This document shows positions 4,512 to 64,000 of a stretch of 64,000 nt of DNA, piece after piece. Location: contig JAWMAR010000667.1 in the NCBI GenBank assembly GCA_036785375.1, positions 558,001-622,000 of the forward strand. The letters are read 5' to 3'. Numbering within the stretch: the stretch's first letter is position 1; each line of letters begins with the position of its first letter. The position numbers and the translations under genes are program-made. Origin of the DNA: Leucoraja ocellata (lineage: Eukaryota). A model generated the notes under the pieces. That model was not told the DNA's origin and did not search any database. It was given only the letters and a program-made list of their open reading frames with translations.

Positions 4512-4980
4512 TGAAACATAGGAAATGGGTGCAGGAGTAGACCATTCGGCACTTGATCATGGCTGATCATCCAGAATCAGTACCCTGTTCTAGCTTTCCA
4601 CCCCCCCCCCCCCCTATCCCTTGATTCCGTTGGCCCTAAGAGCTATATCTGACTCTCTCTTGAATGCATCCAGTGAATTGGCCTCCACTGCCTTCTGTGG
4701 AAGACAATTCCACAAATTCGCAATTCTCTGGGTGAAAATGATTTTTCTCATCTCAGTCCTAAATGGTCTACCCTGAAGAAGAGTCTCGGCCGGAAACATT
4801 ACCTATTCCTTCATTCCATAGATACTACCTCACCCCCCCCCCCCCCCCCCCCCTCCCCCGAATTTCTCCAACTTGTTTGGCTACCCCTAATTCTTAAACT
4901 GTGACCCCTGGTTCTGGACTCTCCCAACATCAGGAAATGTTTTCCTGCATCTAGCCTGTCTAATCCCAAAATAATTTTAT
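4512..4980 (-). mobile_element. CR1 LINE 3' fragment with a Penelope arm inserted (about 4773-4880)
   Basis: GRPFRTEMRK.FTQR..NLWN.LPQKAVEA. Confidence 0.8.
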
Positions 4981-4989
4981 TTTAAAAAG

Positions 4990-5272
4990 TGTCGTAGCTG
5001 CCAGTAGAGTTGCTGCCTCACAATACCGGGGGAGCCTGGTTCATTCCTGACCTCGGCTGCTGTTTACACTGAGTTTCTACCTTCTCCCTGTGACTGTGCG
5101 AGTTTCCTCCACATTCCAAAAACATGTGGGTTTGTAGGTTGGTTGGCTTTTTGCAAATTGCCCCCAATGTGGATGAGAGAGTGGGATAACATTGGGCTAG
5201 TACGAATGGGTGATCGATGGTCGGCGTGGCCTTGGTGGACCAAAGGGCCTGTTTCCACGCTGTAACTCTAAA
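4990..5272 (+). mobile_element. HE1-type SINE
   Basis: Head, V-domain and tail recognisable. Confidence 0.75.
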
Positions 5273-5537
5273 CGTGAGGAAAGAAAACTTGTGTAAATAC
5301 ATTTTCCCAAGATAGTGTTTGCTCACTGATATTGGTGGAGTTGATGTGGAACAGAGCAGTGAGATCCCGCACATTCCATATATGACTGTCGGTCAGAAAA
5401 CCCAGATATTATGTTTATATTTGCTGCTCTTTAATTTTTGGAAGTGGGAGGAGATTGAAGAACATAATTTAAAGGGTGCTGCTTCCCCGAGTTCCTGTGT
5501 TGCATAGTTTTCATTCAGAATGCATAGTTGGGATCTC

Positions 5538-5892
5538 TGTAGGAAGGAACTGCAGATGCTGGTTTACACCAAAGATAGACACAAAATGCCAGAGTAACTC
5601 GATGGGTCAGGCAGCATCTCTGGAGAAAAGGAATAGTTGGAGTTTCATAAGGTCACAAGCGATAGGAGTAGAATTAGACCATTCGGACCATCAAGTATAC
5701 TCCGTCTTTCAATCCTGGCTGATCTATCTCTGCCTCTTAACCCCATTCTCCTGCCTTCTCCCCATAACCTCTGACACCTGTACTAATAAAGAATTGGGTC
5801 TAATGAAGGATCTCGACCCGAAGCGTCACCTATTCCTTTGTTCCAGAGATGCTGGCTGGCCTGCTGAGTTACTCTAGCATTTTGTGTCTATT
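5538..5892. mobile_element. Palindromic Penelope-derived element interrupted by a CR1 3'UTR fragment (about 5646-5790)
   Basis: Left arm GTAGGAAGGAACTGCAGATGCTGG..., right arm ...GAGATGCTG...GAGTTACTCTAGCATTTTGTGTCTA. Confidence 0.7.
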
Positions 5893-6399
5893 TTTTTAAT
5901 CTCTACCCTGCATATGTGCAATATATTTGTCCACATCTAGCTTTGATCTTGGCCTTTGTTGTCTGTGCAGACTACATTTCAGGGAAATAATGTGTACATG
6001 GCACATTCACGCATGCTATCTTCCTGAAATGTATGATATACCTAAACAGGACTGCAAATATAGATGGCTTTGATATTTTATTTCACAACAGAAAAATGTA
6101 ATTTTGCAATATTATCTTATTTACTTTTTATCAGCTCGGTTGCTTGGTTACCAATGTAGATGTAACGAGTTGCAGAAAAAACACTGTGGCAAATCATGTC
6201 TTTTATTCACTGTATCGCACGTTCCAATTTCCTTCAGTCTATAGACTGCTGACTAACAGCGGTTGTGTTGCAAATGATAATTAGAACGAGAATGTTAGGA
6301 TATGATGAATGTCTTCAGAAAGATAGCGTAAGCATGATCCCTTTAAAAAAACAAAAAACAAAGAAAGTACATATTTGTATGCCTCGTTGTCACCGTCCA

Positions 6400-7080
6400 C
6401 TCATCCCGACAATGAACCACTAGACATTTTCTTGAACATTCTCTGCTTTGATTCATCCTTTTCACACCTTGCATTCTCTTTGTGCTCTTCCATATCTCTA
6501 GCTTCCCTCTTCCCCCTCTCCTCTCGGTCTGAAGAAGGGTATTGACCCAAAACGTCACCCTTTCCTTCTCTCCAGAGATACATCCTGCCCTGCTGAGTTA
6601 CTCCAGCATTTTGTCGACCTTGCATTTTGCCGTGATGGTTCTTTGTGAACAATAACATGTTTGCATTTTGCAAAACAAAACTATAGGTAGGCTAGTGTTT
6701 AAGAAGGAACTGCAGATGCTGGAAAATCGAAGGTCGACAAAAATAGAAGGTAGTCTAAAGAAGGGTTTCAGCCCGAAACGTTGCCTATTTCCTTTCGCTC
6801 ATAGATGCTGCTGCACCAGCTGAGTTTCTCCAACATTTCCATCTACCTTGTATGACGGCCAGTTTTTTTTCTTCTTAATCTCAGTTTTGGTCCTCTCTGG
6901 TAGTTATATCTATCCTTCCTTGCAATTTTGTACCTTGCCGAACTATTTGCTAATTGTCTCGTTGAACAAATGGACCTGTCTGAAGAATGGTCCTGACCCG
7001 AAACGTCACCCATCTTTTTTTTTTTCTCCAGAGATGCTGCCTGACCTGCTGAGTTACTCCAGCACTTTGCCTCTGTCTTA
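6400..7080. mobile_element. Cluster of three Penelope-derived arms (6527-6620, 6697-6848, 6978-7078)
   Basis: Each carries a hammerhead-like core; 6980-7007 CTGAAGAATGGTCCTGACCCGAAACGTC is near intact. Confidence 0.7.
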
Positions 7081-10507: not shown

Positions 10508-10629
10508 TCTTTTCAAAAAGGATTAGCTAAAACGATCTCTGTAAAAAAAAAAAAAAAAAAAAATTCTTGAGTGAGTATATATATATATCTGTAACCTTTT
10601 TTGATTTGCTTCTAAAATGACCTGGGATA

Positions 10630-11126
10630 TCTATCTTTCTCCCCTTCCTATTCCCATACTGACCTTTTCTGTCCTGGGTCTCCTCCGTTGCCCGAGTGTG
10701 GCCTCATACAAACTGGAGGAACATGACCGGATGTTCCACTTGGGCCGTTTAACAAACAAACGGTATAGACATCGAATTCTCCAATTATATGTAACTCTCA
10801 ACTTTTATTTTCCACCCTTTTCTCCCACTCTTCTGCCAACCTCCCCACCTCCTCTTCCACCTATATCCCTCCCTCTAGCTTCCCCTACTCTTTTCTTCTT
10901 ATCTGACACCCTTGGTGTCTCTTTTTCATCTCTGTCCAAATCTGCCATTCAACCCCCTCACCTGTATCCACCTATTACTTTGTCCAACCCCCACCTCTTT
11001 TCCAGCTTTCTTCCCCTCTCTCCCCACACCACCTTTCCTGTCCTGACCCCCTCGGCCCCTCTCAATTCCTATCCACCTCCCCTACCATAATCAGTCTGGA
11101 GAAGGGTCTCGACCTGAAACGTTGCA
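10630..11126 (+). mobile_element. Penelope-like element 3' fragment (GIY-YIG endonuclease C-terminus, pyrimidine-rich UTR, degenerate hammerhead)
   Basis: SVLGLLRCPSVASYKLEEHDRMFHLG resembles the Penelope C-terminal LSVLGLLHC...KLEEQHLIFRLG; ends in CTGGAGAAGGGTCTCGACCTGAAACGTT. Confidence 0.75.
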
Positions 11127-11149
11127 TAACTTGCGTAACTTGCATAACT

Positions 11150-14124: not shown

Positions 14125-14330
14125 CGGACACAAAAAGCCAGAGTAACGCAGTGGGTCAGACAGCATCTCTGGGGAAACGGAACGTTTCGGCGACGTTTCA
14201 TGTCGAGACCCTCTTCAGACTGAGAGTCGGGGGGGGGGGGGGGGGAAGGGGAATGAAAGATATAGACAATGATAGAGAGAGATATAGAACAAATGAATGA
14301 AACGTATGAAGAAAAGTAACGAAGATATTT
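14125..14330 (-). mobile_element. Penelope-derived arm plus UTR
   Basis: Minus strand CTGAAGAGGGTCTCGACATGAAACGTC. Confidence 0.65.
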
Positions 14331-14856
14331 AGTGCATTCTGTGCTTCAATTAATTTTAAATTAGAATAGGATGTAGATTAAGAACAAAAAATATGATGGA
14401 ACACGTTGAAACTCAAAAGCTGATTGAGTTACGCAATAGCTTGATAAGTTGTAATTCATTTTCAATCCCTTTCTTTACTGGTTTGTATTTGTGGCATGAA
14501 GAGTTATTTTTCCCATCATATAGTTGATTTGAAGCTTTTAGATGGGTTCATTTACCATCTGAACACCCTGTGGAGCCTTGTTCATGATGTTTCCTGTGGA
14601 CATCGCCTGTTTCTAGGGCTGCTGGTAAGACAATGGCAGATGAAAGCGATGGGGGAGCAATCTTCTGCTAGTCTTTGCTCTTTTTTTCCCATTGAATGGA
14701 GCCTGCATGAGAGTCACACTGGGATACAGTTTCGAAGACGCAAATTGTCCTCTTATACCTTGCGTAAATGGTCAGCCTGACATTTTCTCAGTTTGTCAAT
14801 GCAGACTGCATAAAATCAAGTTTATTCATGGTTTTCCCAAACACTGAACTCTTCTA

Positions 14857-15074
14857 AGGTTACACAAAAAAGCTGGAGAAACTCAGCGGGTGCAGCAGCA
14901 TCTATGGAGCGAAGGAAATAGGCAACGTTTCGGGCCGAAACCCTTCTTCAGTTCCCTCTTAAACTCGATTCTCCAGCATCTGCAGTTCCCTCTTAAACGA
15001 TGCTGCTGCACCCGCTGAGTTTCTCCAGCTTTTTTGTGTAACCTTCGATTCTCCAGCATCTGCAGTTCCCTCTT
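14857..15074. mobile_element. Young Penelope-derived inverted-repeat element (subfamily B) with 18-bp target duplication
   Basis: AAACACTGAACTCTTCTA at 14839-14856 and 15075-15092; minus-strand CTGAAGAAGGGTTTCGGCCCGAAACGTT. Confidence 0.8.
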
Positions 15075-15204
15075 AAACACTGAACTCTTCTAGTTTCTCT
15101 AGGCATGTAACTCCAGGATTCAAGGTTTTGGTGCACTGCGTATTGCATTCACGTCAAAGTTCAATACATGTAAACTTAATTGAGTTTTTAGGCTCCCTTT
15201 AATC

Positions 15205-15700: not shown

Positions 15701-16472
15701 CTTTGGCACAACTCGTACATGCCGACTAAAATGCCCCATCGATGCTGGTCCTATTTGCCCATGTTTGAACCATATGTCCCTCAACCTTTCCTATCCATGC
15801 TCCAGTCCAAGTGTCTTTTATATGTTCTTATAATACCTATTCTATATACAAAGGATACAACAAAGGATACAGAGCACATTTATTATCACATACACCAAAT
15901 GGTGTAGTGAAATTTGACTTGCCAATGCAGTACAAGGATAAAGATAAGACACAACATTAAAGAATTTAACATAAAAACATATATACGTTATTATAGAGAC
16001 TGATGAACATTTGGTTACTAGGTGAACTGAGGTGAATGGGGACCAAGTGAATTTGACATAATCAGTAAGTGTTTATAAATAATTTCTACGCTTGCATGAG
16101 AATCGCATACAGCACTGTCAAGTTTGGAAGGATCCCAACCCAAAACGCCACCTATCCATTTGCTCCAGAGGTGCCGCCTGACCCGGTGAGTTACTCCAAC
16201 ATTTTGTGACCGTCACATCTCTTTTGGAAACGAGCTCTGGAAATGGCAAACTGTAATGGTATTTTCAATCGTGACTCATCATCAGAATCCGTGCATTGTG
16301 TGCGTGGAATCTTTTATTCCAGTTTCTTTCTTGGTCAGAGTTGCCAATGTGAAAGGCCAGCTTTATTAATGTTTTTTAGCAGTCTTAATAAGATTCTAAT
16401 TCAAATACCACTATTAATAGATTCAATTTTTTTAATCTTATTACAATCGGAGATGAAAAGCCCTTTAGTTAC

Positions 16473-16598
16473 AAGGGTCTCGACCCGAAACGTCACCCAT
16501 TCCTTCTCTCCAGAGATGCTGCCTGTCCCGCTGAGTTACTCCAGCATTTTGTGTCTATCGTTGGGTTTAAAGCAGCATCTTGCAGTTCCTTGCTACAC
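16473..16598 (+). mobile_element. Penelope-derived arm, 5'-truncated within the hammerhead (another degenerate arm at 16125-16210)
   Basis: AAGGGTCTCGACCCGAAACGTCACCCATTCC...GCAGTTCCTTGCTACAC. Confidence 0.75.
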
Positions 16599-17688
16599 CT
16601 TGCGCTACTTGAATTGTTATTTTCAAGCTAGCCATAAAAAATTTATAAATAATAAATCTCCATGGTGGAGTTCACCATCTTCACGTTGTGCTAGCTAGCG
16701 TTTGCAAGGTCCCAATTCAGTTCAGTTTATTGTCACGTGTACCGAGGTACAGTGAAAAGCTTTTGTTGTGCTAACCAGTCAGCGGAAAGACAATGCATGG
16801 TTACAATCGAGCCATTCACAGTGTCCAAATACATGATAAGAGAATAACGTTTAAGTGCAAGATAAAGCCAGTAAAGTCGGATCAAAGATATTCTGAGGGT
16901 GCCTGATGAGGGAGATAGTAGTTCAGGACTGTTCTCTGGTTGCGGTTGGATGGTTCAGTTGCCTGATAACACAGCTGGGAAGAAACTGTCCCTGAATCTG
17001 GAGGTGTGCGTTTTCACACTTCTAAACACATTTTTCTCTCTACAAAAAGTTTAGATTTCTGGAGCAAATATTAGCCAAGCAACTTTCTATTCACTTTGCT
17101 ATTAATTTTTGGGCCAAGAACTTGATGATCCTCAACGAAATGCTAGAAGGCAGAGTAACAGAGGTGTCCAAACAGTAATTGGCTTCCATTGTATGCTTGG
17201 CCCTGTCTCCTTGCAGTGAAAAGCCATTGCATAACATACTTGTGTTATTAATAAAAGAAGTATGAAATGAAGGTGTCTCTGTACGTAATCATAGCAGGAA
17301 GAAGAATGGTAGAAGGTGTATACTTAGATGTTGTAAATGCAATCTTTCTCTTTTAATTGGATTTTCTTTGGTGATGATTAACATCCTGACTGTTTCTATA
17401 GTGCTAAGATTAGGATACATAAGAATACTTGAAGATGGGCACAAAATGCTGGAGTTCATTCGCTCGTGTGTCAGACGATATATAGCTCGCTGTCGGCTTC
17501 TGTCGTGGTCCAACACGTTGGCAGAGTTGGTTGCACGATGCGTCGCAGAGTGCATCATGTCATCGTTTCCAGGGATTGCCACACAAGGAAGCTTCTGTCA
17601 TGATCCCCATGCTGGAGTAACTCAGCGGGACATGGCAGCATCTTTGGAGAGACGGAATGGGTGACATTTCTGATCGACAACCCTTCTT

Positions 17689-19799: not shown

Positions 19800-19998
19800 A
19801 GTTTCCCAGCTTTCACCCCCCTTCTTCCCCCTCCCTCCCCACACCCCCCACCCCGCTGACTACAATTTTTCTGAAGAAGGGCCCTGACCCGAAACGTTAC
19901 CTATCCCTATCCTCCTTAGATGCTGCCTCATCCGTTGAGTTAGTCCAGCACTCTGAGTTCCGTGCAAGATTCCAGCATCTGCAGTTCTTGTTGTCTCT
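19800..19998 (+). mobile_element. Penelope-derived UTR plus arm
   Basis: CTGAAGA 19871-77, GAAACGTT 19891-98. Confidence 0.65.
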
Positions 19999-23710: not shown

Positions 23711-23734
23711 TTCTAATAGATGCCCCTGATGTGA

Positions 23735-24015: not shown

Positions 24016-24062
24016 TCTAGTGTGGCAACTCTCGACCAGCGCCTGCAAAATATAAAATATAT

Positions 24063-24157
24063 CTGAAGAAGGGTCTCGACCCGCAACGTCACCCATTCCT
24101 TCTCTCCAGAGATGCTGCCTGTCCCGCTGAGTTACTCCAGCTTGTCGTGTCTATCTT
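24063..24157 (+). mobile_element. Penelope-derived arm
   Basis: CTGAAGAAGGGTCTCGACCCGCAACGTC (GAAA core mutated). Confidence 0.7.
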
Positions 24158-24864: not shown

Positions 24865-25695
24865 GGCCTGAAGATATACACAAAAAGCTGGAGTAACTCA
24901 GAGGGACAGGCAGCATCTCTGGAGAGAAGGAAAGGGTGATGTTTCAGGTCAAGACCCTTCTTCAGACTCTTAATTTTGTTCTGCATGGGTGCAGGAGGTA
25001 GCACCGATGCACTCGTCAATGTAGCAGAGATAGAGTTCGGGGAGAGGCCCAGTGTACGCCTGGAACAGGGATTGTTTGACGTGCCCTACAAAGAGGCAGG
25101 CCTAGCAGTTGCCCATGCCAGTGCCCATAGCTTCGCCTTGGATTTGGAGGAAGTGGGAGGGGTCGAAGGAGAAGCTGTTGAGGGTAAGGACCAGCTCTGC
25201 TAGATTGAGGAGAGTATTAGTAGACGGAAATTGGCTGGTTCAGTGGTCGAGGAAGAAACGGAGGGCTTTAAGACCTTTCTGGTGGGGGATGGAGGTGTAG
25301 AGTGACTGGACCTCCATGGTAAAGGTGAGGGAGTGGGGGCCTGGAAAACGGAAGTCATTGAAGAGACAAAGAGGGTGTGAGGTGTCTTGGACGTAGGTAG
25401 GGAGGGATAAGTCCGGGGGGGGGGGGATATGATGGAGTTGAGGTATGTGGAAATTAACTTGGTGGGACAATACAAGCAGAAACAATGCGTCTGCCATTAC
25501 AGTTCTGTTTGTGGATTTTATTCTGTTATTTTCATTATTTTGTTCTTTGTACCTTTTCATGCCACTAGTTTCCCTTCCCCCTCGACGTTCAGTCTGAAGA
25601 AGGGTCTTGACCCGAAACGTCACCCATTCCTTTTCTCCAGAGATGCTGCCTGACACGCTGAGTTACTCCAGCTTTGTATGTCTATGCTCAGGACC
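24865..25695 (-). mobile_element. Penelope-like element remnant: RT fragment flanked by inverted hammerhead-bearing pseudo-LTR arms
   Basis: Minus strand 25475-24978 encodes LPTYVQDTSH...FTMEVQSLYTSIPHQKGLKALRFFLD and QGEAMGTGMG...LFVGHVKQSLFQ...LYLCYIDECIG (degenerate YIDD), typical of Penelope RT; arms 24865-24968 and 25591-25695 are inverted copies. Confidence 0.85.
25591..25624 (+). ncRNA. Minimal type I hammerhead ribozyme motif (best-preserved plus-strand copy)
   Basis: AGT-CTGAAGA-A-GGGTC-TT-GACCC-GAAACGTC-ACC: CUGANGA and GAAA cores, stem II, palindromic ACGU stem III, GUC triplet; stem I only 2 bp. Confidence 0.7.
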
Positions 25696-27099: not shown

Positions 27100-27540
27100 T
27101 AGGAACTACAAAAAAAAAGAGATGCAAAGTGCTGGAGTAACTCGGTGGGTCAGGCAGCAACTCTGGAGATTGTGGGTTGGTGACGTTTTGGATCAGGACA
27201 AATTTTCAGATTAATTGTATTGGGATGGGGGGGGGCGGGGGGGGGAAGATTACAAGAAGAGAGGTGGGGGCAGGACACAGTTTGGCAAATGATAGGTGGA
27301 TACAGGTGAAAGGGATTTCTAAAACAACAGACGGTTGGAGAAAGGCCAGAGATGAAAAGACAACTAGTGTGAGATAAGGACAGAAGGTGCGTGAATTGTG
27401 AAGCCGGAGGAAGGAAGGAAGGAAAGGCTGAAGGGGACAGGGAGGTATGGAAAAGGAAATGAAAGTAATGGGTGTGAATCTAGATGGGGCACAGGGAGGG
27501 GTGGAGGAGGGGTAAGTATGAGATAAGGGAGAACTGCAAA
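27100..27540 (-). mobile_element. Degenerate Penelope 3'UTR plus arm
   Basis: Arm motif GCTGGAGTAACTC...GGCAGCA followed by a purine-rich tract that resembles the reverse complement of 10800-11090. Confidence 0.55.
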
Positions 27541-40215: not shown

Positions 40216-40971
40216 TCACAGAAGACTGATATTCTGTTACATAGACAGCTGTTCCTGGTTCTTGCAGAAGTGATTTAAAAAAAACCTAGGAGAGGAGAAA
40301 ATGGGCTGAAAAACACAATTAACTGATGTCGATTTTGGGTATCAGTGGAATGTGAACCAAAATACAGTTTTTATTCATATACTGTAATAGTAACTAAGTG
40401 GAAGCAAGATTTAATTTCAATCATGCCTTTGTATTATAAAAGCATCTTAACCGCTGTTGCATTCTACTGTAAACATTACATTTCAGGCAGGGTTGGACAG
40501 TTCCACTTTAACATAATCATTCATCACATTAAGGATACGTGCATGAGTTTGTGTGTGTGCTTAACATGCTCCTCCAAAAGCAAATTTTAAATCCTTTTCA
40601 GTCCTCGGCACCAATCTAGTAAACTATTAAATATCAAGTAATTGGAATTTCAAGGATCATGCGATTGATGAAACATTGAAATGTACATAACAGTAGCACA
40701 ATAACCAGTATCACCAGTACTGACTGCATGTATGACATTCTATGAAGTCATTTTGGCAATGGTATGATTGAACTACTTTTGAATGGATTCTCTCATCACA
40801 CTGTGCTTCGTTATTTTTGCAATGTAACAAATATTGATTAGAATAGATCCAGTATATCAGAATTAAAGTTCAACGTAGGTAGGAACTGCAGCTGCTGGTT
40901 TAAACTGAAGATAGACACAAAAAGCTGGCATAAATCAGCGGGCCACACAGCATCTTTGGAGAAAAGAAAGA

Positions 40972-41005
40972 GGAGACGTTTCGGATCGAAACCCTTCTTC
41001 AGACT
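40972..41005 (-). ncRNA. Minimal hammerhead motif in palindromic Penelope-derived element 40876-41102
   Basis: Minus strand AGT-CTGAAGA-A-GGGT-TTCG-ATCC-GAAACGTC; cores intact, stem I poor. Confidence 0.55.
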
Positions 41006-42019
41006 GCGAGAAAGGTCTCGACCCGAACAGTCACCTAATTCCTTTTCTCCAGAGATGCTGATTAACCCGCTGAGCTACTCCAGCTTTTCGTGTCTATCTT
41101 CAGGATTGAAGTTTCATCTTATTTTATATCAATGCACCCAATTCACATTCGGTCCTAATCAGGCTGAATTAATTAAATGGGCATAAAATCATACAATAAG
41201 TAATTGATTTTATTATCTGTAATAGGTTTCCATTTTGATGCATTAGCTCTCTGCATCATTGCAGCCTCATGAACCACTGAAATAAATCGGCATGTAGTTC
41301 CTGTATATCCACAATAGATAACAATTAAACTTGCCACAGAAAATTAAATCGCGTACACTTCAGTCCTATACTATAATCCATTTACTAATTTGAAATGTGC
41401 AATAACTGCCAGTCAGCTTCTTGGCACTAAAATGTCAAATATAAAATCTCCTTCACTCAGCATTTAAATTGGAGATTTCAAAAATGGAAAATGCTTCATT
41501 TCTTTAATTGCTTATCTCGTTTGGAATTAAATCTTGCTTTCCCTGTATACATTTTTTTCATTCCAAACCTGGTCATTCTCACGTGCATTTCCTTCTCAAT
41601 CTGCAGGAAATGTTCACTTCGCAACCCATCAAATGGATTTAAGGACATGGTTACTTGCCCTTTTCATTCTGGCCCTGGGAGCTTGGTTTTGCACATTCTA
41701 CTGCTATCAGCTCACATTTTCGGTAACTTGCTTAACATAAATATTACGACCTATTTTCCACAGGCAGGTCTCAGGAGACCAGCTAATGAATATGGTCCAC
41801 TATCTCATAAATTCCCTTACCAGTTCAAAATCAGAACAAGATGCCTAACCTGCCAAATAATGTGTGCATCCAATCAGAACCATTTAATTGTGTATCCACA
41901 CCTATATCTCCAAAAAAGAAGTTAATAAAAAAATGTTTTCAGGTCTTTGCCTGTTCATATAATTCAGCACAAAGGACGAAACTGGCCATTGAAAACTTCA
42001 AAGAACTTCAAATAACCCA

Positions 42020-42282
42020 TGCATTCCCTCTCTCCATCCCTCCCCCACCCAAGTCACGCCAGCTTTTCGTTCTCACCTAGCAAACAGCTAACAATGGCCT
42101 GTTTCCTTTATCATTGTTACTTTTTTGCATAGCTTTCATTCATTTGTTCTATATCTCTCTACATCTACTCGTTTCCCCTTTCCTTCAGTCTGAAGGGTCT
42201 CGACCCGAAATGTCACCAATACCTTCTCTCCAGAGATGCTGCCTGTCCCGCTGAGTTACTCCAGCATTGTGTGTCTATCTTC
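42020..42282 (+). mobile_element. Penelope UTR plus arm
   Basis: CAGTCTGAAGGGTCTCGACCCGAAATGTCACC (3-nt deletion in core). Confidence 0.7.
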
Positions 42283-45200
42283 CATTTAAAATAATTATTC
42301 TTTTCTCCAAAATATACTATTTGTGAAAATGGAAATTAAAAAAAATTCAAATTTAGATTCAATGCTTAGAAAAGTGCTATACTACTGTCAGTCATTGAAA
42401 CATTTATAGGATAGTTTGGCAAAGAGCTACACAACAATTACAAAAGTAATTTTCAACTTTGGTTGGTGTGGAAAATCAATTGTCAGTTTTTTTTTAAAAA
42501 AGGTTAGTGTTAAAATACAGGTACAAGTTGAGTAAAATCTTTGCAAGAAGTGAATGACTACTTCTGGACAAGAAAACGATTTGAATTGTCCAGCAGAATA
42601 CAACCGCCTCTACACACCTTGACCATCTTCTTGCTGTGGGAGGAGGAGGTGGGGCAGAGGCGTATTTGACATCAAGAAACAAAGCAGCTGCTCTTGGGTG
42701 GTGTGATGGGGGTGGGGTGGAGAGGTGAGAAGTCCAAGACAATATCACCAGTGAACAGTACTATTATTCCACCAGGCACAAATAACATATGGAATTAACT
42801 TGGAATAAACTGGAGCAGCTGCTATTGTCAGTGATCACCTTACACAGTCGTAAATTAAGGAGACTAATGATTGAACTGTAGACAATGAATGATTCAGCCA
42901 CAAGGTTCTTAAAACTGCAATTGGATACCTAACATATAATTAAATCCTGATTTGTATAATAAAGGTTCATCACCAGGAACCGAGAGATGCTTTGGTGACA
43001 AAAAGCCATTTTAAAAAACTGTAGTAAACAAATCAATGGTCTGTAAAATAATGCACTTATTATCGGCTCATTAATGGAAGGTCCAGTTAGTTAATATTAG
43101 TCCCATCTAATTTAAAATTCCTCAATTATGACACAGATGATTATGGCACAATGTCCTATCTCAACAGCAACAGAATTTCAAATCATCCTATCTGCATCAG
43201 CTTGTCAAAAGAAACATTCTAGAAAGAACCGGACAAAGCAGAGCTATGGAGTATGCCAAGTTCCTCAAGGCCATTATAACAATGACTCGGTTTCAATTTT
43301 AGTGCTTGAAATCAGAGTCAATGCAAGGTAAGAAAAAAAAATGTGGAGTGTGGTGGAGAGAGGGAATGGAGAAACTGAAGGGATGGGTTGAGATTGGCAA
43401 ACGGTTTCCAATTTCAATAGCCGCAGAATTTCAAATCATCCTTACTACTTTATCGTTGGAGAATGCAAAGTTCTTGGAGATCATTATAATGTAACCTTTT
43501 CTGGATAGTACAAGTTGTCATAAGAACAGCTGATCTAGAACAAATGTCATAAGATTTTAATGTATTTCATTCAAAATAGACTGATGTTTTTAAATGGCTA
43601 TTTTAAATGAAAGTTTACTGTCTTAAGTATTTGACGTTAGGAAATATCAGTAAGGCACTAATCTTTTCTAGGTTTGTAATATCAAAACTATAAATGCCTC
43701 ATGGATCAATTAACTCATTTCACTTCAATTAAAAATTACATCACACGGCAGTGACAGAAAACAGTCTCACAAGAATGCCTTGGATATTCAACTTCTGAAG
43801 AATTTTTTCTTAACCATTATAAGCCGCAAATTATAAATACATTCTGATTTACATGAGCACATTCCACAATTTTTTCCCATGTAGAAATACCCAACAAGAC
43901 AGTATTTAATAACATTTATATAGAAATGAATAAATATCTGGAAGATAGACGATCAGCATGGCTGGTGAAATTATTTATATTATATAGTAAGACCTGAAAA
44001 TACCAAATATCTTGAAGAAGCATGCGTCTCTGAGGTAATTTTATACTTTTATATATAAATCTTACAAAGCAAAAAACAGACCTGAATGTATATCCACACA
44101 AAAGCATATATACCTTGTCACATTTTGCCATCTATGCTCATTCTACAAAGTGCACACATGCAGAGAAAAAGAAGCTGAACAGCTAGTAACATTTTATGTC
44201 TTGGCACAAAATAAGAAAAGTACTATTCCGCAAGCAATTAATTAGCGAGTATTGTGAAATTTCTGGCTCAATCTGATTTTTCCCACTTCGAATATACTGG
44301 CAGAAATACTGTGAGGCCATTTTTTCAAATTTGTGATTTGTAACTTAAAAGATATACAACTTCTCAAAGTGCCAAAAATAATTCTCAAAAATATATGACT
44401 ACAAACAAAAGGTACACAATTTCTAACTAACGTGGCATTCAAAATGTGAAGTGTTAAGTTTGTTGCAAAATAGTTTTGGTCGCCATAAGTTTTTAAATCA
44501 ACTTAAATCCAAAAGCATAATGATGTTAAAGAGCAAATCTGTGCATTCTCCTTAGTTTATTATAGTGTTATTCAAAAATTGCATGCTGTGTTTGGCAGGA
44601 CTGTATAATTAGTTTAAAATTGTGATTTCTTTTTTAAAAACAACTCACTGTTAAAACATGCAGCTAACATGAATCACTGTTCTCTTACTCATCTGATTAG
44701 AATGGTAATATAGTGAGAAAAAATAATTAAAAATTCACAGTAGACCAACATTTCCCTTAACATATAAAAAGCCCTGTGAATGCAGTGCATGGCATCCTTG
44801 TATCCTTTTTCAAAAGCCGATCTCTAAAGGGAGTATTGTCAACTGAAGGTCTTTTTTTCTAGTAGTAAAAGAGTTTAAACTAGGGAAACCAATTTACTTT
44901 TCTTTTTTAAAAACCCGAAATAGTGAACAGAGGAAAACATAGCCCTAAATCTTTCAGTTAAGTTTGTTAAATAAGTATATTAATATCCAAAATCATTTTG
45001 CTTTACTTATTTTAACCAAAAAAGTCAAGCTACAAAAATACATTTGCAAGATCTCCCTGAACTAACTCTTTTTTTTTTTAATGAAATAGAACCATAAGAA
45101 TCAGTTATTCTCTCTCTTCTTCCCTCCCCACCCCCAATCCACCCTCCCCAACCCGAGTCCCCAAATCCATTTGTACAATAGAATAATTCAAGCTCTCGAG

Positions 45201-45586: not shown

Positions 45587-45595
45587 AGAAACAAA

Positions 45596-45676: not shown

Positions 45677-45744
45677 CTGAAATAAATAAAAGAAAATGTC
45701 ATTATCCTGCTCTTTAGGTCAGAGGTCTGAGATTAAAACGTTAT

Positions 45745-48719: not shown

Positions 48720-49290
48720 AAAGAATGGGTTGACTGGGCTCATATTCGCTGGATGAGGATGAGGGGGATCTTAAAGAAATGTATACAATTTTTAAGGGAT
48801 TGGACAGGCTAAATGCAGGAAAAATGTTCCCTATGATGGGAGACAAGGGGTCACAGTTTAAGAATAAGGGGTAGGCCATTTAGGACTGAGATGAGGAAAA
48901 AGCTTTTCACCCAGAGAGTTGTGAATCTGTGGAATTCTTTGCCACAGAAGGCAGTGGAGGCCAATTCACTGGATGCATTCAAGAGAGAGTTAGATATAGC
49001 TCTCAAGGCAAAGATAATCAAGGGATATGGGGAGAACACAAAATGTGTGGGAAAGAACTGCAGATGCTGGTTTAAATCGAAGATATACACAAAATCCTGG
49101 AGTAACTCAGCGGGACAGGCAGCATCTCTGGAGAGAATTCTATTTAGAAGATAGACACAGCATTTTGTGTCTACAATATGGGGAGAAAGCAGGAATGGGG
49201 TGCTGATTTTGAATGATCAGCCATGATCATATTGAATGATGGTACTGGCTTGAAGGGCTGAATGACCTACTCTTGCACCTATTTTCCATA
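48720..49290 (+). mobile_element. CR1 LINE 3' fragment with Penelope arm insertion 49037-49175 (12-bp TSD ATATGGGGAGAA)
   Basis: MRKKLFTQRVVNLWNSLPQKAVEA; TSD at 49025-36 and 49176-87. Confidence 0.85.
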
Positions 49291-49679
49291 ATGACAGTAA
49301 GAATTCCTTAATTTTTGTGCTCTCGTTCCTGGTATCTGCATGTTATCTTTCTGCCCAAGATCCATTTGCAAAGCCAATATCTATCAGTTTTATACAATTT
49401 ACACATTCTGTTTTCCTACCAAAGCAAATGGCCTCGCCTTTTGCCCATCCTCCGCTCCAATTTCTTGCCTACTCTCTTCTCAGTGCCTCTCAGAATCTTG
49501 TTTAAATTAGATTGTAAATCATTCTTCTAATTTGGCAGAGATTCATTTTACTGAACCTCTCCCTTGTAGTTCAGCCCTACCAATTGACTTATATCCCAAA
49601 AACCATCTCACGGCCCAAGACAACCAGTTTCCTAACTAAAAATTGTTCCACTGCTTGCAAAACTCATTCCAATCAAGAT

Positions 49680-49902
49680 GACACAAAATGCTGGAGTAAC
49701 TCCGTGGGACAAGCAGTATATCTCCGAAGAGAAGGAATGGGTGAATTTTCAAGTCGAGACCCTTCTTCGGGTCTGAAGAAGGGACTCGACCCAAGATATC
49801 ATCCGTTCCTTTTCTCGAGAGATGCTGTCTGTCCCGCTGAGTTAATCCAGTATTTTCTGTCTATCTTCAGTGTAAACCAGCATCTGCAGTTCCTTCCTAC
49901 AA
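49680..49902. mobile_element. Palindromic Penelope-derived element, 10-bp TSD
   Basis: CAATCAAGAT at 49670-79 and 49903-12. Confidence 0.75.
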
Positions 49903-51858: not shown

Positions 51859-53476
51859 GTCTAGCACTGAAATAGTCTTATGCAATCCAATCCCTAGACC
51901 ATGATTGCTTTGTTGCAACATTTTCCGTGAAGAACCAATGCTCAAAAATAATGGCCATGGCTACCATGGAAACAGTTGGATTGTTAAGTAAAAATAAGCA
52001 GAGATCCACAGAATCCCAATGCCTACTTTGGGCATAGATTTGGCAGCATGTGTTCAGAATTGTCTAAACAAAATACCAGTCGGGTTAGTCATGTAACTTC
52101 TTGTAGGCAATAAGATATTAAAGATGGTTAGAGTTAGTTGATGAGATGTTTTTGTTTAAAAACCTTTGACAAATAACTTGCCAGTGCTGCTTAAAGGAAG
52201 CCAGTACCATATAAATGCTGAAAGTTGATTTTACTGTCAAATCTATTTGGCTGCCAACATTCTTCTTCAGCTGTGGCTAGGAAAGAAAACTAGGCAGAAA
52301 TTCACCAAACGGGCTGGTGGAAAACGGTGACAGGCATGTTAAGGGTTATTTTGTGCAGTCATTCTTTTTTTGTTGCCTTTGATACCACGGGCGTGGGTGC
52401 TGAAACTTGGTGGCTGCCAATGGAATAATATTTATACTATTTAATTATTCTTCTTTCTTATTATGCGATACACGAAACATTGGGATATCTTGTGCACGAT
52501 CATATATTAAAACTATCTTTTTCATCTTTGTTGCAAGTCACTTTGCAGAAATGAAATAAATTGAATTTTAATGTCGAATTCTTCGGAATTAATTCTTTGA
52601 GTTTCATAAATGAAACACAGAACAAATGGGAATTGAGCACTTACTCAAAACAGAGAAAATGTGTATAATAAAATGATCAATCGCTAGTGCTGAATAAAAA
52701 TACTGTACATTGCTTTAAGAACTGTTCTGCAAACTGCAACTCATCAGTACCAGCTGGGATAAAAAGCTGTTTCAGGCATAAAACAAACTTCCAGTGCATG
52801 ACATGGTGCTTCTTAAAAAGGCTTAGAATCTGATCATATAAGCCCACTGGAAATTATTCTGCAGGAGATGGAATAAAGTTAGTGTTCCCTTGAAAATTGC
52901 ACAAAAGTATTATGTAAAACAATTAAGTTGCTGTAAGTCATATAAATGAGGTATTAAATAAATTTAAGTTCCTACCACTATCATTTATAAATTTCACTAT
53001 AAAAATGTCCCTCTACTTCGCTATTTTGCATGTGTGGCAGGTGAATCAGTTTGTGTTGTTTAAAATCAATTTTTACTTCATGATTTCAACGTACAAAAGA
53101 TGAGTCCCATAATACTGGTTTTCCTCATACATAATATAAAAGAAAGCCCTTGACTGAACACTGACTATAAAACTTACTGTAAGTGTACAATTGCTTGCTG
53201 AAACTGGATAATCGTCAAAATATATATTCAACAAAGAAGGATACATAAGGAAACTGTATATTATAACATTAGTTAGACAAAAGTAGAATTTCCAAATACA
53301 TTATCTTTGAATAAACCAAAATCCCTTCTTTCATTTCAATAATTTCCAAGCCCATCCCCACATTCTTTGTTTAAGCACTAATCAACTTGTTCCCTCTCAG
53401 CCTTATCTTAATTCTTTTACCATAAGTGAACATTAGTATACTACGTGTTCCTAACACCAGTCTGCATGGGAGACTT

Positions 53477-53710
53477 GTGTAGGAAGGAACTGCAGATGCT
53501 GGTTTAAAGTGAAGATAGAGACAAAATACTAGAGTAACTCAGCGGGACAGGCAGCATCTCTGGTGAGAAGGAATGGGTGACGTTTAAGGGTCGGAACCCT
53601 TATTCAGAAGAAGGAGGAGCTTCAGTCTGAAGATGGGGCTCGATCCAAATGTCACCCATTCCTTCTCTCCAGAGATGCTGCCTGTCCCACTGAGTTACTC
53701 CAACATTTTT
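53477..53710. mobile_element. Palindromic Penelope-derived element, 17-bp TSD
   Basis: GTCTGCATGGGAGACTT at 53460-53476 and 53711-53727; inverted arms. Confidence 0.85.
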
Positions 53711-53879
53711 GTCTGCATGGGAGACTTTCCTAGCATAGAATCACTCAGTCTTTCAAAGACAATATTAAACAGCATATAAGGTTGTACTTCATTCAATATG
53801 CCAAGTGCGGGTGTAGATAATTGGCAAATAACCTATGGTGTTGCCGAGGTATCTTTATAAAGGGCCACCTGTCAGTACT

Positions 53880-54265
53880 TTAAGGTGAGGGGGAAAAGAT
53901 TTAGTAGGAACGGAGGGGTTACCTTTTCATACAAAGGGTGTTGGGTGCATGGAACGAGATGCCGGAGGAGGTAGTTGAGGCAGGTACTACCGCAATGTTT
54001 AAGAAACATTTAGACAGGTATTTAAGAAGGAACTGCAGATGCTGGAAAATCAAAGGTACACAAATATGCTGGAGAAACTCAGCGGGTGCAGCAGCATCTA
54101 TGGAGCGAAGGAAATGGGCAACGTTTAGACAGGTACATGGATAGGACAGATTTTAGAGGGATATGGGCCAAATACAGGCAAATGGGACTAGTGTAGATGG
54201 GCCATGGTGGTCAGCATGGGCAAGTTGGGCCAAAGGGCCTGTTTGCACGCTGTATGATTCTACGA
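53880..54265 (+). mobile_element. CR1 LINE 3' fragment with Penelope arm insertion 54021-54123 (12-bp TSD TTTAGACAGGTA)
   Basis: TSD at 54009-20 and 54124-35. Confidence 0.85.
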
Positions 54266-55390: not shown

Positions 55391-55484
55391 TCATGACCCA
55401 TACAGTGTTAGAGTACAACTGTCTGTCTCGAAAGGTCTATTTGTAGGTCCGTGCTTCATTTGTTTGGCCAAATTGTGAACTCAC

Positions 55485-56428: not shown

Positions 56429-56602
56429 CTGAAAAAGATTAATTATTGCAAGCCATTCAGTACAATTGCAATGTGTAGATTTTTCTGTATTACTTCAATG
56501 CTGTTATATTTCTATTATCCTTTACACAGATCAATAACAAAAATAATGAAAAATGAATGTACATGAAAATAGAACCCCAGTAACCTGGTAAATAATCCTA
56601 AA

Positions 56603-56693
56603 GGTACACAAAAATGCTGGAGAAACTCAGCGGGTGCAGCAGCATCTATGGAGCGAAGGAAATAGGCAACGTTTCGGGCCGAAACCCTTCTTC
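56603..56693 (-). mobile_element. Subfamily B Penelope-derived arm, 13-bp TSD
   Basis: AAATAATCCTAAA at 56590-56602 and 56694-56706. Confidence 0.8.
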
Positions 56694-56989
56694 AAATAAT
56701 CCTAAATGTTAGATTGATCCTCGTTCATGACAATTAACTGTGTTACATGGAGTTTCACCCACTTCCGGCATATAATGGAGAACTATTATTATTTTCCCTT
56801 GACCAAAATTCGCTTGTTGCAGAAGTTGAATACAACATTCACGGCCACATGTACAAAATTACATCCCTTATTTCTTCATGCAATGTGACCAGTGTGCCAG
56901 GTATTATTTATCATTCATCCTTGAAACACGCTGAAGTCATCACAAGTGAAAGATGTTTCTTAAGAAGGATATTATTAAACGACCATTTT

Positions 56990-59549: not shown

Positions 59550-59980
59550 GAAACATAGAAAGTAGGTGCAGGTGTAAAGCATTTGGCCCTTCAAGCCAGC
59601 ACCACCATTCAATGTGATCGTGGCTGATCATCCAAAATCAGTACCCTGTTCCTGCTTTCTCCCCATAAGCCTCGATTCCGTTAGGCCTAAGAGCTAAATC
59701 TAGCTCTCTTGAAAACGTCCAGTGAATTGGCCTCCACTGCCTTCTGTGGCAGAGAATTCCACACAGATTCACAACTCTCTGGGTGAAAACGTTTTTCCTC
59801 ATCTCAGTCCTAAATGGCCTACCCCTTATTCTTAAACTGTGACCCCTGGTTCTGGACTTCCCCCAACATGGGGACATTTTTTCCTGCATCTGGCCTGTCC
59901 AATCCCTTAAGAATTTTATATGTTTCTATAAGATTCCCTCTCTCTCATCCTCCAGTGAATACAAGCCCAGTCGACCATTT
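59550..59980 (-). mobile_element. CR1 LINE 3' fragment
   Basis: RTRGHSLRIRGRPFRTEMRKNVFTQRVVNL. Confidence 0.85.
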
Positions 59981-62454
59981 CTTTAATGTCATGACCCGCA
60001 AGCCATTCCTCCAGTAATTCATCCTTCAAGTGTTCGCCTACTGCAATTTGGGAACCGAGGATAACCCTACCACAAATGGCTAAATATACAGTCATTGTGA
60101 ACCCCATGGAATGGTTTTGGCAGCTCGGTCCTAGCTTGAACCGACTGCCAAAGTTGTCAAATTGTTTGAACATTTAAAAATATTACTTTACACTTAAATT
60201 AACTTGTTAAAATAAAATAAACTTGTTTTGCTTAATGTTTTTCTAATATTTACATTAATAAAATTGCACAAAATAGTGTAAACAACTTGGCTCTCAAGCG
60301 CTCTTTTGCAGTCCCTCCTGTCCATTAAATTGAATGGAGTCACAGAATCTGTGCCAAGTTGAACATGGCATGGGCTCAGCAGAGAGATTTTGCAGAGTAA
60401 CTGCTGAAGTTGATGTTCCAGAGCTGGACTCGGGAGGAGCACACTGCTAATGGAAATGGCACGGACCTCTTAGGAAATCTGAGACTTCACGTAAGCATAT
60501 GCTTTCAACAGCTCTGGAATATTGTACATATTTAAGATATACCGGTGAGAGAATGAGAAAAATGTTAATTTTCATATTTCTCCTTTTAATACACATTATT
60601 GAGTGTGACAGTAAAATGTTAAAACCAATCCAATTTCCTTCTAGTTGATTTTCTTCTGGGGTATGAATGGCAACTCCACCATAACACACAAACTAACAAC
60701 ATTATTATTCCAATGAGTTTTAAAATGCACAAGTTTAAACATGATCAGAAATTACATTAAAGAATGATCAAAACATCCATCTATTATAGTCAAGTAACAT
60801 CTGTGGAGAGAGAATCATTTAATATTTCAGGTTAATGGCATTGGTAAGGTAATTGATTTTATACACACAATCAAAGCTGATACCAGTGCTAATGTTGAGA
60901 TTTAGCCAGCTTTCTGAAATGCAGCACTGGCATTGGGTTAGCCTGCTGTTGGCACTTGTCACTGCCTTTATCTTGCAGACGTGGATCATCATGCTATCCA
61001 GTGGGTCATTGTGAACTTTACAGACCACTCAGCTTCTGAGCTAAACCCGGTGTATGTAGAGTGGTGCCACGAAAATGAATAGTCGCTAACAGGGGAGAGG
61101 TAGGAAGAGCTTTATATTTGATATCAATGAATTCCCATGTCTCAGATGGTATTTAGCCACCTGTTGTAATGGTTTAATTATTTTTTTAAGTAACAATTTG
61201 TTAATGGTCTCCGGGAGCTTGAATGTTGCGTGCTTCAAGTTGGCAGTAGTGGGGTCCTAATGCTGGACAGGACGGCTCAATTTTGTCGTGAGGCGACCCA
61301 GTCTCTGTTTATCAACCACCCGATGATCTCAATCATGTGCCACTCGTTGCTCATTTTGGGCATCAAAGGGCATTTTAGTCCTGCCCTCTGGTCTCACCAC
61401 TTAGGTTCGGAAGAAACTGCTAAATCTCTTCGGGAGGGGGCGCGAGACAAACAATTGCAAATCTGAGTCACCTGATAAGAGGATGGTGGCTTGTGGCCGA
61501 TGTGCATCTGTACCCAGGTAGCAGCTCTGCCTTCAGACTTTACGTAGATGGGTGTGTACACAAGCTAGGGGCACTGCTGTCAGGAAGACGTGTAGCTCAA
61601 GAGTAAGCATCAGCTGTGCTGTTCTGAAGGAGTTCCATCTGTCTTTCTTTGTTTAGATGGGAGATACAGTTTGGAAATCAACCCCTCGGCCCACCCAGTC
61701 CACACTGACCATCGGTCAGGTAGTTCTATCTTCTCCCAGTTTTTCCATCCACTCCTTGCATGCCAAGGGAGATTTGCAGAGGCCACTTAACCTACAAATC
61801 TTTAGAATATAGGAGGAAGCATTATCTTTTTTACGAGCGCCTTTTTCAGAGTCTGGGCCAAAGCTGCCTTCAGTCAGAGTGTTCCCCTGCCAGTGGAGAG
61901 AGGTGTTCCCATAATTTGCTCCCCACCACAAGACCAGTTCTACTGCACAAATCACACACGGAGGAATGTGGCACCTTTGTCGCCACACATCAAACTGGTG
62001 CAACATCCCACAAAGTGCCTCTTCCGCATTTAAACACACATTTCAGGCCCATCTTTTGATAATAAAATCAGAAAGCATGTGATGGGAAGGATTATCGTGA
62101 ATAAGCTTTTGAGACATGGGATTGCTTTTACTGGCCAAGCACAAGAATTAATCACAATCTTTAGTATCCGCAGGGTTCCCAATCAACTGACGTGGAACCC
62201 AAAACTGGCATGGAGTGCAGAGCAGCTCGATTTCAAGTGGCTGTATGCCCAGGATTTGTATGTTTGTCAGGCATAAATAAATCGTGCGGTCAATGTGAAA
62301 ATTATCCAAATTGGATTAACAAACTAACCTGATCACAGCAGCTGCTGAATTGCTGAAAATGGATCAGGTCGTAGAGACTGTCGTTTACTGTCTATTTTAA
62401 CTGCTGTGAACCGCAATTTTTCAATGTATTAAAAATAATCCACATAATTATATT

Positions 62455-62581
62455 GTGTAGGAAGGAACTGCAGATGCTGGTTTAATCTGAAGATAAGACA
62501 CAAAATGCTGGAGGAACGCGGCAGGCCTGGCAGCATATCTGGAGATTTTGTGAATATCCAGCATTTTGTATCTATCTTAAG
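62455..62581. mobile_element. Internally deleted Penelope-derived palindrome, 10-bp TSD (further arms at 63390-63580 and 63895-64000)
   Basis: TAATTATATT at 62445-54 and 62582-91. Confidence 0.7.
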
Positions 62582-64000
62582 TAATTATATTTGTACTTTC
62601 ATGCTGCTTGTAGATTTAAAGTGATAATGCTATTTCAAAGGTATTGCCCTTGAATCAATTCTTCACACAATGTCGGAGTTCCCCAGATTGCCGTTTTTCT
62701 TCCAGTTCCCACTTGCGATAATGGGTATATTTCACTGCTAACAAGGCTATGTGCCTTGCTGTGCATCATGGGAATCTCGAGACACGGTCAACTGAGCACA
62801 GGGTAGAACAGATATCAGCATCATTGCTTCAGCATACCAGCAAGTCTTCACTACTGCAAAACTATGGGTTTCAATGGACACAGACTGAATAGAAAGAGCA
62901 TTTGGCATCATAACTGGAAAGAGAAAACAAATTAGCCCTTCAGGTTGAAGACTCTTCATCAGTTCTGACAAAGTCTTCAACCAGAAACAATTTCAGTAGT
63001 GACCTCCCTCAAGGAACTGTTTGAGAATCTGCCGCACTAAATTCTCTTGAAACAAACAATAAAACTGTAGAAGCAGCCAAAATCAAAATCAAGAAGAATA
63101 CCTTACCATGATTAATAGTGCAGCAGATTCAATTGCAGGATTTGAAATGGAACTGGAGCAGCACCCAGAGGCATGGAGCAAAGTAGTGAGACTCACTGGA
63201 TTGCTTTTACATTTGACAGGAGGTGCATACTACCCCACTGACTGACATTTCTGTCCTTAAAGGAAGAGGATGAGACCTATCTCGCCTTACCCTGGGTCTG
63301 TGGCCCACCCCGCTCAAATTTACCAAAGCCTGTTTTGAAGGCCAAGTATCTACCACAATACTTGGCCTTCAAAGCTGCCCTACTCAAAATGTACCCCCCA
63401 CCCCCCTCTCACCTGTATCCACCTATCACTTTCTGCACTGTGTTATGCCCTCGCCTCTCTTCCAGCTTTCTCACAGCATTCCAATCAGATTGAAGAAAGA
63501 TCCAAAATGTCGCCTATCCATGTTTTCCAGAAATGATACACAACATGCCGAGTTACTCCAGCATTTTGTGTCTTTTTCCTACTCAAAATGGCTTCTCCCT
63601 GGGAGCCTACCTACCCCTCTTAATTGCAGCTGACGCAACCAATGGAAATATTTCCTCATGAGGAAGACTGATCACAGATCTTTTATTTTAAAAGAACCTC
63701 TTGTCTCCATATTAATATTTATATTCATAAATTCATGCAGACTATGATTCCTGGGCCTTAGAGATTTCAGCATATAAAACCCGACAGTAAGATCTGAATT
63801 CATGAGGTACGTGCCTTTATTGAGATGCTTATGAGTCAGTAGGTGATGTACTTCTGAAAAACCAACAAGCTTCCCTGCACAATAGATGACCCTGTGTGTA
63901 GAAAGGAACTGCAAATGCTTGTTTAAACTGAAGATGGACACAAAATGCAGGAGTAACTCAGCGGGATATATCTGGAGTTTTGGGTCGAGACTCTTCTTCA

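Follow-up and report, generated by a model that had tools for sequence, protein, structure and literature searches.

Several features of Penelope elements are already published, namely their inverted ends, their tails and the palindromes at their junctions (PMC8557442, PMC3846280), and their promoters are described as internal, lying within the pseudo-long terminal repeat (pseudo-LTR) (PMC2377424). For PAc, the Poseidon element of Anolis, the available account of in vitro work reports that both target strands are cut and extended and that uncleaved RNA is the template (PMC11167929), and cleavage of hammerhead ribozymes as dimers has been described (Lunse et al. 2017, as cited in PMC6765202). 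Here we analysed a 64,000-nucleotide (nt) stretch of the genome of Leucoraja ocellata (assembly GCA_036785375.1, contig JAWMAR010000667.1, positions 558,001 to 622,000; hereafter the window), which contains many short repeats, called arms below, related to a minimal hammerhead ribozyme. We are confident that these repeats are the 3′ ends (a pseudo-LTR with a minimal hammerhead and an optional tail of ~35 nt) of protein-coding Penelope-like retrotransposons, likely deposited anew at each insertion as dead-end copies and not forming a self-spreading family.

Positions within an arm are given as +n or −n, counted along the arm from the C of CUGAAGA (0), with the predicted cut between +27 and +28. 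Arms were called in the window at a threshold of at least 40 bits by alignment to two references, one for each of the subfamilies A and B, and the 3.44 Gb genome was represented by a random sample of 40 stretches of 10 kb (400 kb) at fixed round coordinates.

The evidence for the origin of the arms comes from copies elsewhere in the genome, which run upstream into the end of a GIY-YIG endonuclease frame. Using one such GIY-YIG-linked piece as query, we found 40 loci with ~99% identity (parent B), and in 27 of the 30 loci read the B hammerhead lies ~117 nt past the GIY-YIG stop codon. One parent B locus (L158) is a partial tandem with a 954-nt repeat and hammerheads 3,939 nt apart, as in a pseudo-LTR; its open reading frame (ORF) starts with an ATG at +164, i.e. 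164 nt downstream of the hammerhead, and extends over 1,198 amino acids with one frameshift near the N-terminus. The frame has a reverse transcriptase (RT) match (RVT_1, E 1.9e-6) just under the cut-off of that model, while its GIY-YIG end was read from the sequence and from relatives. Between RT and endonuclease the translation contains CX4CxxC, in agreement with the CX2-5CxxC motif given for Neptune/Nematis elements (PMC8557442). The frame has 1,607 relatives and those listed mostly carry RT domains, some with GIY-YIG. For subfamily A, the hammerhead follows a GIY-YIG stop by ~190 nt in 22 of 30 loci, which were chosen by their upstream sequence; the frame preceding it is older, while parent B is young (99% identical copies).

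The window itself holds a long inverted A insertion (24870..25685), with a minus-strand arm at 24870-24968, a plus-strand arm at 25565-25685 and, between them, a broken fragment of Penelope RT (24979..25407, minus strand; tblastn, 68% identity to the parent B protein over 143 amino acids). Taken together, the linkage of the hammerhead to the ORF and this RT remnant indicate that the arms are pseudo-LTR ends of Neptune/Nematis-type Penelope-like elements (RT + GIY-YIG), as judged from sequence and with the clade assigned by the linker motif only.

Other Penelope-like elements were encountered in the same genome. The family retrieved by the first GIY-YIG search, which is telomere-associated, was discarded as a parent: three arm matches in its 30 loci were neither downstream of the ORF nor close in sequence. 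This second, unrelated and very young family (L044 and L061-L064, on G000:C353, C2032 and C1427, and many other contigs) has an intact 759-amino-acid RT + GIY-YIG frame, with a 637-amino-acid frame upstream in L061 and L062; its copies form arrays, arranged head to tail, in which (CCCTAA)n telomere repeats are interspersed. Such a link between telomeric repeats and an element that encodes an endonuclease may merit a separate study. As for parent B, an array of young units with 3,985-nt spacing was observed at G000:C1:8.66-8.68 Mb (L218-L220); such full-length tandem copies could put several hammerheads on one transcript.

The structure of the insertions is coherent with this origin. The 41 arms of the window belong to 34 insertions, seven head-to-head pairs (arms at most 150 nt apart) and 27 single arms. 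The preliminary description of the window was right that the repeats are real, while its count of about 25 often palindromic elements was too low, and only 14 of the 41 arms are paired. A tailed arm is joined to an untailed one in 17/17 young pairs, 7/7 window pairs and 23 of the 33 classifiable random-sample pairs (two more were unclassified), that is 47/57 overall (p = 8e-7 against an even split), as expected for an inverted copy with one tail. Furthermore, a target duplication of 14-18 nt (microhomology included) encloses all 17 young pairs, and this asymmetry of tails within a target duplication agrees with a copying process that starts from the two nicked strands. Among single arms, duplications of at least 11 nt were found in 5/27 cases in the window and in 18/102 in the random sample, compared with 1-2% in swapped controls. 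Pair junctions are mostly private to one insertion, and the recurrent ones use the palindromes of the motif itself, at −5 or through stem II.

By analogy with what was found in vitro for the anole element (PMC11167929), staggered nicks ~14 nt apart would be made in both strands by the endonuclease; the template RNA would be uncleaved, and either nick, or both, could serve to prime reverse transcription at one of two internal sites of the RNA. One primed end would then give a single arm and two a palindrome, sometimes joined at the short palindromes of the hammerhead.

Arms are very abundant. The random sample contains 155-172 of them per 400 kb, depending on the threshold, and ~6% of its bases lie in arms (using the B reference without tail), from which we estimate ~1.3-1.5 million arms genome-wide. 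Exact copies of the 28-base B hammerhead number 30,775 in the genome. To describe the ends we used a young B sample, obtained with a 27-base pattern with 6,925 matches, of which the first 100 listed, on two contigs, gave 99 distinct arms. Their 3′ ends fall into two classes, 57 at +93 to +97 (untailed) and 39 at +124 to +136 (tailed), with three elsewhere; the optional tail is a published trait, which PMC11167929 relates to two priming sites inside the RNA. At the 5′ side, 45 arms extend to −6 or further upstream, into the parent 3′ untranslated region (UTR) or ORF (11 of them beyond −1,000), 27 start between −5 and 0, and 27 start downstream. At the hammerhead front edge the 5′ ends thus reach a density of 4.5 per base, against ~0.1 upstream and 0.2-0.9 downstream. 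The same pile-up is present in single young B arms (12/55 within 6 nt, against 6 in the 95 nt upstream), and old A arms share the edge, 69/152 starting at −6 to −1. In RNA reads of a related species, 705 loose ends with mixed flanks lie at −3. Genome-wide, the base A of the parent at −3 is missing in 5,836 of the 30,775 exact B hammerheads; after correction for chance matches, ~27% of them end at −2. Inspection of 30 G-type cases revealed no parent sequence upstream in any of them.

The possibility that this edge results from splicing at the CAG that precedes the core was rejected, as the upstream sequence is the target duplication or a few private bases and never a shared exon. In four loci (L293, L298, L312, L313) short duplicated pieces of the hammerhead stand directly before the −2 edge, consistent with template jumps at microhomology.

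The explanation of the 5′ pile-up that we tentatively put first, at slightly less than an even chance, is run-off: the RNA would begin at an initiator-like motif immediately ahead of the core, and reverse transcription primed in the 5′ pseudo-LTR would copy only 95-135 nt before reaching the 5′ end of the RNA. The sequence at the front edge fits the vertebrate initiator consensus. An RNA starting at −3/−2 would give exactly the observed run-off lengths, and the re-primed hammerhead pieces before −2 fit a free complementary DNA (cDNA) end at that place.

Several observations weigh against the proposed origin of the arms and of their edge. RNA reads of a related species (fragmented libraries, 1-5% of each run) showed no pile of starts at −3, and a cap-type extra G before the A at −3 was not found, with 1,215 G and 1,501 A, near base composition. 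Before −2 the bases are 2,337 G, 1,573 C and 1,926 T, the G excess coming at least partly from re-priming at the GG-GT of stem II. In Drosophila, the described start of Penelope transcription precedes the hammerhead by ~120 nt, on the far side of an intron (PMC2377424, PMC4209133). The tail rule is broken in 10 of the 33 classifiable random pairs, and an intact A parent was not found among the A loci examined. Moreover, old A arms are seldom long upstream (4/152 beyond −40), and because of this some copying of stubs from stubs may have occurred. In the bulk RNA of the related species, the arm has a depth of ~900-1,100 per strand and the 5′ part of the ORF 0-2, as expected for passenger transcription.

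Nearly as likely as run-off is another explanation, which concerns the 5′ pile-up alone: the RNA would continue upstream, and either the RT stalls at the front of a folded or protein-bound hammerhead, or two cDNAs anneal at the palindrome that overlaps the core. This explanation, which we consider possible without leaning towards it, agrees with the modal end at −2, the outer edge of the 2-base-pair (bp) stem I, with several pairs joined at that palindrome or at stem II (L247-L249, L259), with the negative cap test, and with a C-rich upstream UTR that could be hard to copy. However, annealing is not the whole cause, given that single arms have the same pile-up. Stalling is opposed by the predicted folding: in isolation, the sequence reaches the hammerhead shape only at an energy 6-8 kcal/mol higher than that of its best structure, and the pairing probability is near 0 for stem I and at most 0.11 for stem II. 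Furthermore, a hairpin should stop the enzyme on its 3′ side, and the ends at +20 to +29 are not enriched.

Returning to run-off, a wider proposal is that the RNA of these fish-lineage Penelope elements starts at the hammerhead front edge and that, owing to priming inside the RNA, the 5′ pseudo-LTR gives rise to a run-off cDNA of 95-135 nt. This cDNA would be inserted directly, in many cases from the two nicked strands, through two enzymes that each use a different one of the two priming sites. We regard it as conceivable, although on balance somewhat doubtful. If true, more than one million stubs would be an in vivo record of the transcription start, of both priming sites and of two-ended integration, and the abundance of single-copy minimal hammerheads in animal genomes would be explained.

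Then, we evaluated the hammerhead itself. A strict descriptor of the minimal hammerhead gave four matches in the window and 25 in the random sample, and none in dinucleotide shuffles (10 each for the window and the sample), hence the motif is not due to chance. From the 25 matches per 400 kb we estimate ~200,000 genome-wide. Most of the 29 strict matches have a stem II of 4 bp with a 4-nt loop, which is the best reading of stem II in subfamilies A and B alike, and 28 of the 29 have the extra base at 9/10.1. With the G10.1-C11.1 pair, also present, these traits bear out the minimal type I hammerhead of the preliminary description, as defined in PMC4209133. The core (CUGANGA and GAAA with an NUH cut site) is invariant in B and in four A groups, the cut-site triplet being GUC in A and GUU in B. 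Stem I has 2 bp in both parents and does not reach ~4-5 bp; in the window it is kept in only one of the four strict matches, at 25594-25621, within the plus-strand arm of the long inverted A insertion. The five hammerhead sites originally cited are all present, with differences in detail: 25594-25621 has a TT loop variant, 6980-7007 has a broken stem II pair, and 56667-56694 is on the minus strand. The damaged CUGA reported at 29907 and 56694 proved instead to be the end of the insertion, adjoining the target-site duplication. A scan of the window with Rfam found no hammerhead family among 14 matches at E≤10, a result of little weight as the Rfam models need longer helices.

The two subfamilies are identical at 29/33 hammerhead positions, 81/105 downstream columns and 31/59 upstream columns, and the bases upstream of −4 vary between them without keeping pairs. 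Of the four hammerhead positions that differ, one is in the loop and one is the cleavage-site base (C/U); the other two are A-to-G changes, which turn U-A into U-G. Pairing is kept, as first described, by one-sided and not compensatory changes. The two families are too close, so only these two changes are available for judging compensation, and calling the subfamilies covarying was an overstatement. The core is better conserved between subfamilies than its flanks, all 11 core positions being the same while 24/105 downstream and 28/59 upstream columns differ. On the basis of these comparisons, the master elements kept the hammerhead core. Within copies the situation is different: in 46 younger A copies, mutations affect 15/320 core sites (4.7%) and 123/1,974 flanking sites (6.2%; p = 0.31), which indicates no detectable selection on the copies. 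All 11 core positions are intact in 9/41 window arms; it was correctly anticipated that most copies have core mutations and that stem I is short. In a palindrome the two arms have opposite orientations; RNA transcribed across it therefore contains just one hammerhead in sense and not a dimer. Probably the ribozyme is weak and depends on protein or on dimers; its cut does not define most copies.

A stronger position, compatible with the origin proposed above, is that the hammerhead-shaped motif no longer cleaves and that the master elements retain it as a promoter or as a binding site for protein. The 2-bp stem I, the unpaired variation upstream of −4, a monomer predicted not to fold as a hammerhead and tandem hammerheads as far as 3.9 kb apart are consistent with such a loss, as is the lack of a pile of read ends at +28 in the related-species RNA reads. 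Nevertheless, we consider it rather unlikely: the 11 core positions are identical in B and the four A groups amid diverging flanks, a 2-bp helix I has been published for Drosophila Penelope (PMC4209133), and the anole hammerhead is described as cleaving only with its protein (PMC11167929).

The preliminary description had interpreted the repeats as a highly amplified non-autonomous family similar to retrozymes, i.e. short hammerhead RNAs cut as dimers, perhaps circularised, and re-inserted in trans. The very high copy number and the defined 5′ edge would suit such a family, as would the internal promoters of Penelope (PMC2377424) and a preprint that, in its available text, ties tandem retrozymes to pseudo-LTRs (10.64898/2026.07.22.740005). 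The boundaries of the copies do not. The cut site was tried as a major 5′ end and rejected, few or no arms starting at +28: 0/99 young copies, 0/127 B arms and 1/133 A arms. Copies span the cut site, starting upstream and extending 65-100 nt past it. Genome-wide there are 1,004 purine-preceded matches at +28, which leads to an estimate of up to ~1,100 B arms that may start there, ~1.7% of arms against ~0.8% per base nearby, at most a twofold excess on a rough denominator. Among 30 inspected cases, 23 lacked upstream hammerhead sequence, and ~15-17 of these 23 were true ends by eye, the rest being small deletions or hybrids. No arrays of cut-to-cut units were found and neighbours on the same strand are rare (2/9 neighbour pairs in the window and 6/48 in the random sample; at most 150 nt apart, 2 among 41 window arms and 6 among 172 random arms). 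Moreover, one young autonomous family yields both long copies and stubs, with mostly private junctions, and according to the available description the anole element depends on ORF sequence located downstream of its priming sites (PMC11167929), which the stubs lack. The retrozyme-like interpretation is thus very improbable and already largely refuted.

Two kinds of locus involve the cut site directly. In L378/L379 and three similar head-to-head B pairs, the predicted cut site is where both arms begin, and these overlap by 2 bases, which may reflect either microhomology or rare copying of cleaved RNA. The B ORF start adjoins +28 directly in L380 and L381, two loci that resemble duplicates of one event. 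As to RNA, none of the joints listed from poly(A)-selected libraries of a related species (119 more are in the set) was cut-to-cut, the type that a circular RNA would give.

Finally, a miniature inverted-repeat transposable element (MITE), a DNA transposon derivative with terminal inverted repeats, would explain short palindromes with target duplications, but the arms are asymmetric, variable in length, often single and continuous with the RT + GIY-YIG frame, which refutes this origin almost with certainty and upholds the original view of a Penelope derivative.

In the window, arm orientation is balanced (21 plus, 20 minus). Besides the long inverted A insertion, the head-to-head pairs include one of subfamily B (14853..15082, both strands), 98-99% identical to parent B and with a flanking duplication, formed by an untailed minus-strand arm with intact core (14853-14951) and a tailed plus-strand arm (14999-15082). 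The A pairs are at 32561..32786 and 36982..37208 (both untailed + tailed), 35282..35551 (old, tailed + untailed), 40875..41101 (tailed minus-strand arm with intact core and lost stem I, plus an untailed arm, overlapping at the small palindrome that precedes the core), 49675..49901 and 53476..53714, the last two in the last intron of a host gene and the latter with a flanking duplication. A probable eighth pair (5538..5894, both strands) has a tailed minus-strand arm and an untailed plus-strand arm 151 nt apart, with another repeat between them; they were counted as singles. At 63895..64000 (both strands) a tailed minus-strand arm has its plus-strand partner cut off by the end of the window.

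Some copies retain parent sequence upstream. On the plus strand, 6489..6614 is an A arm with 35 nt of the parent 3′ UTR, 42004..42290 is an A copy with ~200 nt of it upstream of the hammerhead, and 10605..11128 is an old longer copy with a GIY-YIG C-terminal remnant, then a pyrimidine-rich UTR and a hammerhead remnant; on the minus strand, an old A arm (14127..14327) has 95 nt of the 3′ UTR. The other A arms are at 6978..7079 (plus; core intact, first pair of stem II broken), 16127..16208 (plus; old, damaged core), 16473..16598 (plus; tailed, starting within the core), 17609..17688 (minus) and 24062..24157 (plus; starting at −1, damaged GAAA). Three tailed A pieces lack the hammerhead, a fragment at 32252..32313 (plus) and arms at 49043..49137 and 62454..62545 (both minus). 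Single B copies comprise 29904..30017 (plus; 14-nt target-site duplication), 54018..54126 (minus; tailed, starting at ~+21, target-site duplication), 56601..56694 (minus; starting at +1, target-site duplication, in the intron upstream of a large host exon), a fragment without hammerhead at 31013..31065 (minus), and the composite 6695..6849 (both strands), in which a plus-strand B arm (6752-6839) is preceded by an inverted tail remnant. The remaining old arms are at 4773..4835 (plus; short, core present), 19870..19987 (plus; tailed, a strict hammerhead match with a 1-bp stem I), 27125..27210 (minus), 28506..28595 (minus; starting at −3), 39890..40000 (minus; tailed) and 63499..63573 (plus).

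The host gene has minus-strand exons, including a large one (55440-56438) and a last coding exon at approximately 45600-45690 encoding a hydrophobic C-terminal tail. We presume it to be junctophilin (JPH2), the name used in the preliminary description; a search gave no match. Ten arms do lie between 45690 and 64000, as had been reported for the introns of this gene; the sense orientation noted for some of them is to be seen against the even orientation across the window. None of the ten has an intact core, and nothing suggests a role of the arms in the host gene. In the intron upstream of the large exon, a GC-rich tandem minisatellite (57073-57832) gives long repetitive open frames. Elsewhere in the window there are a GC-rich, nearly perfect palindrome that does not match the Penelope arms (20478-20639), fragments of the 3′ part of long interspersed nuclear elements (e.g. 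3218-3761 and 30027-30767), and another abundant dispersed repeat (e.g. 238-428, 12458-12570, 22620-22777, 23760-23917 and 36249-36406; families D10-D13 and D18-D20), which we take to be similar to a short interspersed nuclear element.

The value of the stubs lies in the data that they offer on a poorly understood transposition cycle. The great number of arms and a young family with a nearly intact protein make testable the priming on both strands, the use of one priming site per strand and the cause of the −2 edge. In practical terms, most of the hammerheads counted in such genomes are dead insertion ends, and the palindromes can be mis-annotated as MITEs or as microRNA hairpins; one of them scored as a plant microRNA family, below the cut-off of that family.

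In comparison with known systems, the minimal hammerhead is already known for vertebrate Penelope elements, the inverted ends and the tails are published as well, and the ribozyme and the element are in themselves ordinary. Our literature search found no paper on these stubs in sharks or rays, and the family may be catalogued in Repbase or Dfam. The motif resembles the minimal type I hammerheads of Penelope-like elements (Cervera and de la Pena 2014, PMC4209133) in its CUGANGA...GAAA core, extra base at 9/10.1 and G10.1-C11.1 pair, as well as in its loopless palindromic helix III, pseudo-LTR location and mostly single dispersed copies with some opposite-strand pairs. Helix I has 2 bp here and in Drosophila, against 4-5 bp in Schistosoma, and helix II has 4 bp here; the ~200,000 strict matches compare with ~4,000-9,000 given in that source for coelacanth and Xenopus, obtained with different descriptors. 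The insertions share with Neptune/Nematis units (PMC8557442, PMC3846280) the C-terminal GIY-YIG, the Cys-rich linker between RT and endonuclease, partial tandems, strong 5′ truncation, an inverted 5′ copy, a 30-40-nt tail at one end and a target duplication. Unlike those units, most of the present ones have no ORF sequence and measure 95-250 nt, and their 5′ ends pile up sharply at the hammerhead front edge, a feature that the available text of these two sources does not describe. As in Anolis PAc (Frangieh et al. 2024, PMC11167929), there are two internal priming sites separated by the tail; the PAc ORF is reported to begin inside the hammerhead, whereas here the ATG is 164 nt downstream, so that both priming sites lie in the 5′ UTR. 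Lastly, the stubs are similar to the non-LTR retrozymes of the preprint (10.64898/2026.07.22.740005) in being short, non-coding, related to pseudo-LTRs, provided with a type I hammerhead and dispersed as monomers; retrozymes, however, are there presented as head-to-tail tandems with a hammerhead in each unit, whereas in this genome the stubs occur singly or head-to-head, with ends that bear no relation to the cut site.

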